A stretch of 5,648 nt of DNA, taken from a virus. Made by a program: the position numbers and the translations under genes. Under the pieces are notes generated by a model. That model ran no database searches. It saw nothing but the letters and a program-made list of their open reading frames with translations, and was not told the DNA's origin. This document shows, piece by piece, positions 3,637 through 3,709 of this stretch. Position 1 is the stretch's first letter. Every line of letters begins with the position of its first letter. Location of the stretch: positions 1 through 5,648 of IMG/VR virus record IMGVR_UViG_3300045988_006862; one strand, 5' to 3'.

Positions 3637-3664
3637 TTGACAAAAAAGCAAGACATGATATAAC
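3637..3664 (+). promoter_or_regulatory. Sigma70/sigmaA-type promoter P1 (TTGACA - 16 nt - TATAAC, preceded by an extended -10 TG)
   Basis: -35 TTGACA (3637-3642), a 16-nt spacer, extended -10 TG (3656-3657) and -10 TATAAC (3659-3664). The predicted start near 3671 runs directly into the terminator hairpin at 3671-3701. Confidence 0.6.
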
Positions 3665-3670
3665 AAAGAC

Positions 3671-3701
3671 AAAAACCGGAGTTGACAACTCCGGTTTTTT
3701 T
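3671..3701 (+). terminator. Canonical intrinsic (rho-independent) terminator hairpin, potentially bidirectional
   Basis: AAAAACCGGAGTT (3671-3683), loop GAC, AACTCCGGTTTTT (3687-3699) form a 13-bp perfect stem with a CCGGAG/CTCCGG core. A run of 7 T (3695-3701) follows, mirrored by a 5' A-tract. Confidence 0.75.
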
Positions 3702-3709
3702 GATATAAT
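3682..3709 (+). promoter_or_regulatory. Consensus sigma70/sigmaA promoter P2 (TTGACA - 16 nt - TATAAT, preceded by an extended -10 TG) driving the peptidase gene and downstream genes
   Basis: -35 TTGACA (3682-3687, centred on the terminator hairpin loop), a 16-nt spacer, extended -10 TG (3701-3702) and a perfect -10 TATAAT (3704-3709). It lies 28 nt upstream of ATG 3737 and its AAGGAG RBS. Confidence 0.75.

Follow-up and report, generated by a model that had tools for sequence, protein, structure and literature searches.

A promoter nested within a predicted intrinsic terminator in the non-coding region of a gut gokushovirus-type genome

Introduction

In the microvirus phiX174, the TH terminator overlaps the promoter pA; Logel and Jaschke (bioRxiv 10.1101/2020.03.05.979765) describe the pair as a reset of transcriptional current ahead of gene A. 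The phiX174 record gives the order of parts as TTGACA, a -10 region, the hairpin GCCTCCAAATCTTGGAGGC, a T6 run and the gene A ATG, with the annotated pA start (3962) placed inside the TH hairpin loop. Here we describe an element of the same kind in IMG/VR virus record IMGVR_UViG_3300045988_006862, of which the whole stretch of 5,648 nucleotides (nt) was analysed and is referred to below as the window. The first 55 bases of the window are repeated at 5594-5648, making it a complete circle of 5593 nt, and it is the genome of a gokushovirus, i.e. a gut gokushovirus-type microvirus. Between its replication protein gene (rep, VP4) and a gene for an M15 peptidase lies a predicted intrinsic (Rho-independent) terminator at 3671-3701 in which the -35 hexamer of a promoter, P2, is nested, and which is preceded by a second promoter-like sequence, P1. 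With a probability that we put at roughly 0.7, the explanation of the whole arrangement is that the terminator and the promoter nested in it would reset transcription, P1 having been carried over.

Both phiX174 (Bullavirinae) and the present genome are those of circular single-stranded DNA (ssDNA) microviruses with transcription in one direction, and in each a terminator and a promoter share a few dozen non-coding bases near the rep gene. In both, transcripts arriving from upstream carry the whole hairpin whereas those of the overlapping promoter do not, a property that here is deduced from sequence geometry only. The arrangement of the parts, however, differs: the phiX174 promoter has its boxes ahead of the hairpin and its start in the loop, whereas here the -35 hexamer is in the loop, the T-tract belongs to the spacer, and the predicted start lies past the terminator. 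Furthermore, pA is weak whereas P2 is a perfect consensus, and the phiX174 element sits just upstream of gene A, the rep gene, whereas the one described here sits in a 587-nt gap downstream of VP4 and is followed by the peptidase gene. The two share no sequence homology, and we regard the nested element as an analogue rather than a homologue of pA-TH, representing a new geometry of a known kind of element.

Relative to a canonical Rho-independent terminator, the element has a comparable 8-base-pair (bp) GC-rich stem that A:U pairs lengthen, together with a 3-nt loop and a U7 tract; its 5' A-tract makes it formally bidirectional. It departs from the canonical form in containing the promoter of the next unit and, in the window, in following a gene remnant rather than an intact gene. 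P2, in turn, resembles extended -10 (TGn) sigma70/sigmaA promoters in having TTGACA, a 16-nt spacer and TGnTATAAT, but differs in that its spacer would be constrained by a second role as 3' arm and T-tract of the terminator.

Gokushoviruses are among the commonest gut phages and almost none have been cultured. A full-text literature search combining gokushovirus, promoter and terminator returned nothing beyond an unrelated review. The parts considered here are textbook promoters and a textbook terminator, and no new mechanistic principle is demonstrated. What the comparative data offer is a testable transcription map for a large clade, with one main promoter and one reset terminator, to which conserved hairpins past the capsid gene and within rep are added. 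The clade would represent a second solution, of another geometry, to the problem of terminating and restarting round-the-circle transcription that phiX174 also faces, and the 40-nt terminator/promoter unit could serve as an insulator in synthetic constructs.

Results and discussion

Architecture of the element

The following features, all on the plus strand, make up the element and its immediate surroundings.

3637-3664, plus strand: P1, with -35 TTGACA (3637-3642), a 16-nt spacer, TG (3656-3657) and -10 TATAAC (3659-3664); predicted start near 3671
3671-3701, plus strand: putative intrinsic terminator, with A5 (3671-3675), a GC-rich stem (3676-3683/3687-3694), the loop GAC (3684-3686) and T7 (3695-3701)
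3682-3709, plus strand: P2, with -35 TTGACA (3682-3687), a 16-nt spacer, TG (3701-3702) and -10 TATAAT (3704-3709); predicted start near 3716
3710-3739, plus strand: region of the P2 transcript leader, containing AAGGAG (3722-3727) as Shine-Dalgarno sequence and the start codon of the peptidase gene at 3737-3739; the leader of the RNA itself is predicted to be 20 nt long
3737-4120, plus strand: Peptidase_M15_3 gene (Pfam PF08291, E = 1.5e-23), first gene of the block that P2 would serve

A sequence-only reading of the window had placed two promoters with 16-nt spacers and TG extensions 45 nt apart, and between and over them a 13-bp stem (3671-3699) with a T7 run, the -35 hexamer of the second promoter lying on the hairpin loop and its spacer being formed by the 3' arm and T-tract. 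Inspection of the sequence confirmed every one of these coordinates and distances. The arms of the inverted repeat, 3671-3684 and 3686-3699, are 100% complementary (14+14 nt), giving a stem of 13-14 bp with an 8-bp GC-rich core that folds at -16.6 kcal/mol as RNA (z = -5.5) and at -13.6 kcal/mol as DNA (z = -5.9). The GAC of the loop is the middle of the P2 -35 hexamer, the remainder of which occupies the top of the stem. In a strand composed of 37% A and 18% T, the T7 at 3695-3701 is the only run of at least six T in the genome. The terminator scanner reported the hairpin in minus-strand orientation only, its greedy stem extension absorbing five of the seven T. Searches of Rfam returned no family at the gathering score for the element, the nearest being a chance match to sraA at 3632-3706 (26 bits against 56, E = 0.86).

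P2 is the sole 12/12 promoter match of the window, whereas seven other promoter-like hits score 9/12, which is the level expected by chance. When the pattern was restricted to TTGACA-N16-TATAAY, exactly two matches were obtained, at 3637 and 3682, against 0.06 expected; two or more were found in none of 200 shuffles.

A conserved promoter upstream of the peptidase gene

We gathered about 100 related genomes via VP4, the peptidase and a small upstream open reading frame (ORF), and aligned the DNA 5' of the peptidase start; L-numbers below denote loci of this comparison. A promoter matching at least 10 of the 12 consensus positions was found within 75 nt of the peptidase ATG in 45 of 81 distinct upstream regions, compared with a background rate of 0.0064 per 75 nt, taken from the coding DNA that follows at these loci. 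Among these 45 homologous promoters, the -35 hexamer is TTGACA in 35, the spacer measures 17 nt in 40, and TG precedes the -10 in 22. The -10 hexamer itself varies as TAnnnT (TATAAT, TACAAT, TAAAAT, TATAGT), and spacers from different lineages have no sequence relation to one another while the hexamers stay conserved in position. Since the hexamers are conserved, the -10 is variable and the spacers are unrelated, P2 would be a real sigma70/sigmaA-type promoter, and the reading of P2 as the window's version of a conserved promoter for the M15 peptidase and structural block is well supported by these alignments.

The same variation disposed of another candidate, in which TGATATAA was considered as a nick site of the phiX174-like Rep type; this was rejected, as the sequence varies as TAnnnT and keeps a fixed 17-nt distance to TTGACA in relatives. 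Separately, a leader motif, AATAGAAG(A/G), found at 3713-3722 in the window, recurs in many relatives, 4-12 nt past the -10, across lineages with otherwise different promoters and spacers.

With regard to the host, relatives of VP1 (31-45% identity) were found within contigs of 20-118 kilobases assigned to Clostridia, Christensenella, Gastranaerophilales and other metagenome-assembled genomes (L176-L188), which are possible integrated gokushovirus prophages and as such hints on the host. Given that contigs of Clostridia and Christensenella hold such relatives, a host whose main sigma factor reads TTGACA/TGnTATAAT is plausible, if weakly so.

A recurrent hairpin-promoter module

A hairpin with the -35 hexamer in its loop and a T-tract in the spacer was identified in at least 12 distinct relatives. 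Its dyad centre always falls on the A of TTGACA, so that the 3' arm and T-tract together form the spacer, and its stems are diverse in sequence (CCGGAG/CTCCGG, GACGGAG/CTCCGTC, CCGGGG/CCCCGG, CCCGG/CCGGG, ACTCCCGG/CCGGGAGT, GAGGGC/GCCCTC, AGAGGC/GCCTCT, AGAACCC/GGGTTCT and TCGAT/ATCGA). In a gapless alignment of 14 versions, chosen for having the hairpin, 89% of cells are paired, as against at most 58% with the partner slid. Compensatory changes are extensive, with 9 of 12 pairs changing on both sides; one stem pair alternates between U-A and U-G (U-G in 5 of the 14), and wobble pairs are formed only in the plus-strand sense.

Enrichment was assessed over the distinct TTGACA promoters from all microvirus loci, a hairpin being counted only where four or more consecutive pairs extend the built-in TTG/CAA. 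Of 95 such promoters, 12 carry a hairpin centred on the A of TTGACA, whereas shuffled flanks averaged 0.65 and never exceeded 4, and TTGACA sites lacking a -10 gave 1 in 89. The spacers of the hairpin promoters contain 48% T, with T runs of 4-9, compared with 20% T and runs of mostly 1-2 in the other 83 promoters. The T-tract thus tracks the hairpin rather than the promoter, which argues for an intrinsic terminator as opposed to a mere palindrome.

The genomic position of the hairpin points the same way. In relatives it starts 0-15 nt past the stop codon of a conserved ORF of 60 amino acids (aa), or overlaps it, and in two cases the TGA within TTGACA is itself that stop codon. This ORF family (MKHTYELRK...AEPKYAKQRA..YAN.HPGLYSL.KVE...YFTEKE) has a strong promoter of its own about 270 nt upstream (CTTGACAAAATC...TATGATAAAAT) and in many relatives occupies the interval from rep to the peptidase gene (L141 501-683, L159, L155, L170 and others); it is absent from the window. 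Because the stems differ with compensatory changes and the element usually stands just past the stop of a small ORF, we interpret it as a terminator with a nested promoter. That the composite is a separable, recurrent module, in which the terminator of a small transcription unit would contain the next promoter, is well supported by the comparison, and the proposal of the sequence-only reading that the hairpin at P2 is a terminator gains support from the covariation, the hairpin-linked T-tract and the position behind stop codons. Separability is illustrated by loci such as L016 and L066, in which promoter and T-tract are kept and the 5' arm is lost, and by relatives in which the 60-aa ORF is only 6 nt from the peptidase gene and neither hairpin nor promoter is found there.

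These data also bear on a reading of the palindrome as a regulatory site acting at the level of DNA, either as the operator of a dimeric repressor or as a cruciform that switches P2 off. The repeat is perfect over 14+14 nt, with the -35 at its centre and A and T tracts at its sides, and a repeat of this length is in principle long enough for cruciform extrusion. Its half-sites, however, are not conserved, only TTGAC and the pairing being kept, which speaks against a sequence-specific protein, and the U-G wobbles would be A-C mismatches on the other strand, as expected for a single-strand structure of plus sense. In addition, the 3' T-tract of relatives is longer than the 5' A-tract instead of mirroring it, and a Pfam scan recognised no DNA-binding regulator among the window proteins, the small ORFs being uncharacterised. 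We therefore consider a DNA-level switch improbable.

The presence and absence of the element among relatives are most informative for a further alternative, in which the hairpin is a signal for complementary-strand synthesis in the packaged ssDNA, used by primase, PriA or RNA polymerase, with the promoter-like boxes as part of it. The hairpin is as significant in the DNA fold as in the RNA fold, and since viral strand and mRNA share one sense, covariation cannot separate this possibility from a terminator. Conserved intergenic hairpins in other microviruses have been proposed to serve complementary-strand synthesis (PMC9865509). Like the M13/f1 minus-strand origin, the F-plasmid Frpo, the phiX174 primosome assembly site and the G4 origin, the element is a stable non-coding hairpin of the packaged strand; it differs from them in that its boxes are not duplex and in being dispensable among close relatives. 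It is missing from many relatives whose Rep is 83-94% identical (L101, L103, L088-L091, L110-L112 and others), including those whose small ORF and peptidase gene are separated by just 6 nt. Folding of the single strand places the -35 in the loop and stem top and leaves the -10 unpaired, whereas known ssDNA promoters (the M13 minus-strand origin and Frpo) present both boxes as duplex. The requirement for a T-tract and the placement behind a stop codon are in keeping with a terminator, and a hairpin at 3152-3192, described below, is a better origin candidate. Taken together, these points make an ssDNA origin at this hairpin very unlikely, and the earlier suggestion of a promoter-mimicking ssDNA origin did not stand up to the comparison.

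The hairpin-core pattern CGGAGTTGACANCTCCG also matched nine large unrelated phage contigs, and these were set aside as chance matches in coding-like context with neither T-tract nor -10. At L156 (about 680-760), a promoter past a small ORF is without a -35 hairpin, and an inverted repeat, CACCTTCTTATGGT...ACCATAAGGAGGTG, spans its -10 and Shine-Dalgarno sequence.

P1 and the mosaic origin of the junction

Upstream of the terminator with nested P2, the window contains the remains of a unit that is intact in several relatives and is here called module B.

3569-3585, plus strand: -35 relic and proximal spacer of module B (TTGACAATTGTAAAGAA), with TTGACAA at 3569-3575 and no -10; deletion junction near 3585/3586
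3587-3640, plus strand: C-terminal remnant of the module B ORF (ending SRQRINQLEKENKLMWY and a stop), comprising its last 17 codons, with the TGA stop inside the P1 -35

In an alignment of L088, L090, L091, L105, L101 and L103, intact module B consists of a promoter (TTGACAATTGTAAAGAnnTGTGnTAnAAT), a Shine-Dalgarno sequence and an ORF of 59-63 aa that ends in ...SRQRI(N/H)QLEKENK(L/I)MW(Y/M) and a stop; the remnant in the window shows codon-level conservation with the 59-63 aa ORFs found in L088, L090, L091, L101, L103 and L113. Past their -35, the relatives go on to TG-n-TATAAT/TACAAT, then to a Shine-Dalgarno sequence, a start codon and some 45 codons; a deletion of approximately 170 nt has removed this whole stretch from the window. 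The third TTGACAA at 3569, which had been noticed before as lacking a -10 and does lack one, is hence explained as the -35 relic of module B's deleted promoter, the -10 having been lost with the deleted segment.

P1 itself matches 11/12 positions and has the TG extension, with a C in place of the near-invariant T at the last position of its -10. In L101 and L103, the stop of the module B ORF likewise lies inside TTGACA, which is followed by a 17-nt spacer, TGnTATAAC and the ribosome-binding site of the peptidase gene, with no hairpin. The hexamers and TG of P1 are identical in the window, L101 and L103, including the final C, and the spacer differs at about half of its positions and by one base in length, although this conservation of the hexamers rests on three sequences only. 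P1 is probably a real, modest promoter in the lineage of L101 and L103, and, owing to the C that ends its -10, probably weaker than P2. Its earlier description as a promoter is thus upheld in part: the hexamers are kept in these two relatives, whereas the final C, the overlap of its polymerase footprint with that of P2 and its unique placement before the terminator tell against it.

Beyond CAAAGACA the window diverges from L103 and continues with the hairpin, P2 and leader of another lineage, the leader being closest to L081/L159. P1 and P2 would accordingly be two alternative peptidase promoters that module mosaicism has brought together. A tandem duplication of one promoter was also considered and rejected, given that the spacers are unrelated and each promoter has separate homologues in different relatives. 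Searches with two junction patterns found the P1-terminator-P2 junction in no other viral or metagenome contig; the pattern of module B end plus P1 -35 matched the L008 contig only, and blastn of 3540-3745 against GenBank phages returned one irrelevant match. The junction may have arisen by recombination in this genome alone, a chimeric assembly being less likely, and the placement of P1 before the terminator looks like an incidental outcome of the shuffling of modules, or possibly of the assembly.

That the exact arrangement is a singleton, in a region that is a patchwork of modules, is also what would be expected if nothing here were functional and the sequence were a chance product of A-rich non-coding DNA or of chimeric assembly. 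The statistics nonetheless put promoter pair, hairpin and T run far beyond chance, and each module is conserved or covarying in many independent contigs; even with a chimeric junction, the composite of P2 and terminator would be real in one parent genome, and P1 in the other. An absence of any function is accordingly the least probable of the explanations considered.

The singleton status weighs as well on the idea that P1 and the terminator form a purposeful unit, producing a functional hairpin RNA of about 30 nt or an attenuated read-through that tunes the peptidase. In its favour are the 11/12 match with TGn, a predicted start at the hairpin's first base, and the conservation of the hexamers in L101 and L103. 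The combination of P1 with a terminator, however, exists in this genome only; in L101 and L103 the same promoter runs into the peptidase gene without a hairpin, the -10 ends in C, and no Rfam match above threshold was obtained. The proximity to P2 is a further obstacle, since RNA polymerase covers roughly -55 to +20 of a promoter and P1 and P2, at 45 bp apart, would not be occupied by two polymerases together. A purposeful P1 unit is consequently improbable.

Predicted course of transcription

The analysis shows the sequence elements, their statistical excess, the conservation and covariation among relatives and the mosaic origin, whereas initiation, termination, the relative promoter strengths and the fate of a P1 transcript are inferred here from sequence. 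In the explanation that we favour, a Rho-independent terminator would stop transcripts arriving from upstream, namely those that have gone round the circle and read through past rep, and those started in the non-coding region, including at P1. Once the hairpin had folded in these incoming transcripts, they would be ended within the U-tract, at about 3697-3702. For the block of peptidase, scaffold, capsid, pilot and rep genes the main promoter would be P2, and its RNA, starting near 3716 and so about 15 nt past the T-tract, would carry no hairpin and escape termination. Transcription would in this manner be reset once per turn of the circle within about 40 nt. P1 would at best be a weak and competing promoter, over which P2 is expected to dominate owing to its better -10, and P1 RNA, starting at about 3671 on the first base of the hairpin, would be released after some 30 nt unless read-through occurs.

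Several considerations count against this explanation. The spacer of P2 measures 16 nt whereas that of most relatives measures 17 nt. The hairpin is absent from many relatives and must be dispensable. TTGACAA is itself a short palindrome (TTG-A-CAA), from which chance hairpins are easier to evolve, and the selection of the 14 aligned versions for having a hairpin means that their percentage of pairing is not independent evidence, that role falling to the diversity of the stems and the enrichment count. Lastly, the P1-terminator-P2 junction was found in no other contig and might stem from a chimeric assembly of two co-occurring phages.

A more speculative extension is that the nested promoter acts as a polymerase-capture device, which would recycle RNA polymerase at each turn of the circle and would have been selected repeatedly in gut gokushoviruses. 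As described in three papers (PMC6978322, PMC6978380, PMC10372574), bacterial RNA polymerase often remains on the DNA after intrinsic termination and can re-initiate nearby. If capture did occur, a promoter overlapping the release site would be ideally placed to take up the terminated polymerase again; we regard the idea as improbable.

Genome organization and relatives

All recognised genes are on the plus strand, making the genome unidirectional as judged by Pfam and ORF inspection. Besides the peptidase gene, the following features were recognised; further small ORFs are present in the genome.

Crossing the window end, to 1277, plus strand: VP1 capsid gene (Phage_F)
Ending at 2133, plus strand: VP2
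2130-3149, plus strand: VP4, replication protein (rep)
3150-3736: non-coding stretch of 587 nt between VP4 and the peptidase gene
4574-4816, plus strand: VP5-like ORF
4809-5204, plus strand: scaffold protein of the Chlamydia-phage type

GenBank relatives come from pig, human and monkey faeces, with approximately 80% identity across rep and the initial half of the non-coding stretch. Roux et al. 2012 (PMC3394797) described the occurrence of M15 peptidase genes among gut Microviridae. Two minus-strand ORFs, 3406-3747 and 3587-3787, are leucine- and phenylalanine-rich read-outs of the T-rich strand in the mosaic region.

Other conserved elements

A conserved hairpin with a T-rich tail lies past the VP1 stop at 1281-1320, with AAGGAGG, a Shine-Dalgarno sequence, on one side and the VP2 ATG at 1318 on the other. 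Its compensatory variants include GCCCGCA/TGCGGGC, GCCCGGA/TCCGGGC, GCCGGG/CCCGGC and GGCCGGA/TCCGGCC. It would be a terminator or attenuator past the capsid gene, nested between a ribosome-binding site and the next start codon, and its placement implies that VP2 starts from 1318 and not from 1300, where an ATG falls within the hairpin.

Another conserved hairpin, at 2182-2219, falls within codons 18-29 of rep (VP4), with the arms AGCGGGCG...CGCCCGCT followed by TTTTCT. Some compensatory changes in this stem alter the protein, with AGCGGGAG/CTCCCGCT exchanging A to S, ACCGGGC/GCCCGGT exchanging S to T and GGGCAAG/CTTGCCC exchanging R to Q. By its form the hairpin resembles a terminator or attenuator placed early in rep. 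A search of Rfam over 2180-2267 gave a sub-threshold match to Termite-leu (28.8 bits against a gathering score of 51).

The hairpin at 3152-3192, right past the VP4 stop, reads GGTGTCACC-TA-GCCCAGTACC-TATCAAGTA-AGGTACTGGGC and varies hardly at all in sequence, even in the loop, across all 73 distinct relatives, with the downstream flank diverging at once. The few compensatory changes in its stem are GCCAAG/CTTGGC, GTCCAG/CTGGAC and GGCCAG/CTGGCC, and it is preceded by a GTGTCA motif that is often duplicated in the manner of iterons. In combining an iteron with a stem-loop, it looks like the Rep origin, and its T-rich tail may allow it to act as a terminator as well.

The segment 3150-3460 is non-coding and yet about 80% identical in many gut gokushoviruses. 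Within it, nine plus-strand copies of TGTTGAAAA/TGTGGAAAA (with at most one mismatch) are all clustered at 3293-3457, compared with 2.5 expected in the whole window. These repeats may be iterons; TGTGGAAAA would differ by one base from a DnaA box on the other strand. Finally, GC-rich repeats of the CGCGCACACGCG type with an overlapping palindrome (3232-3255) occupy 3196-3256 and are conserved in several relatives directly 3' of the post-VP4 hairpin.

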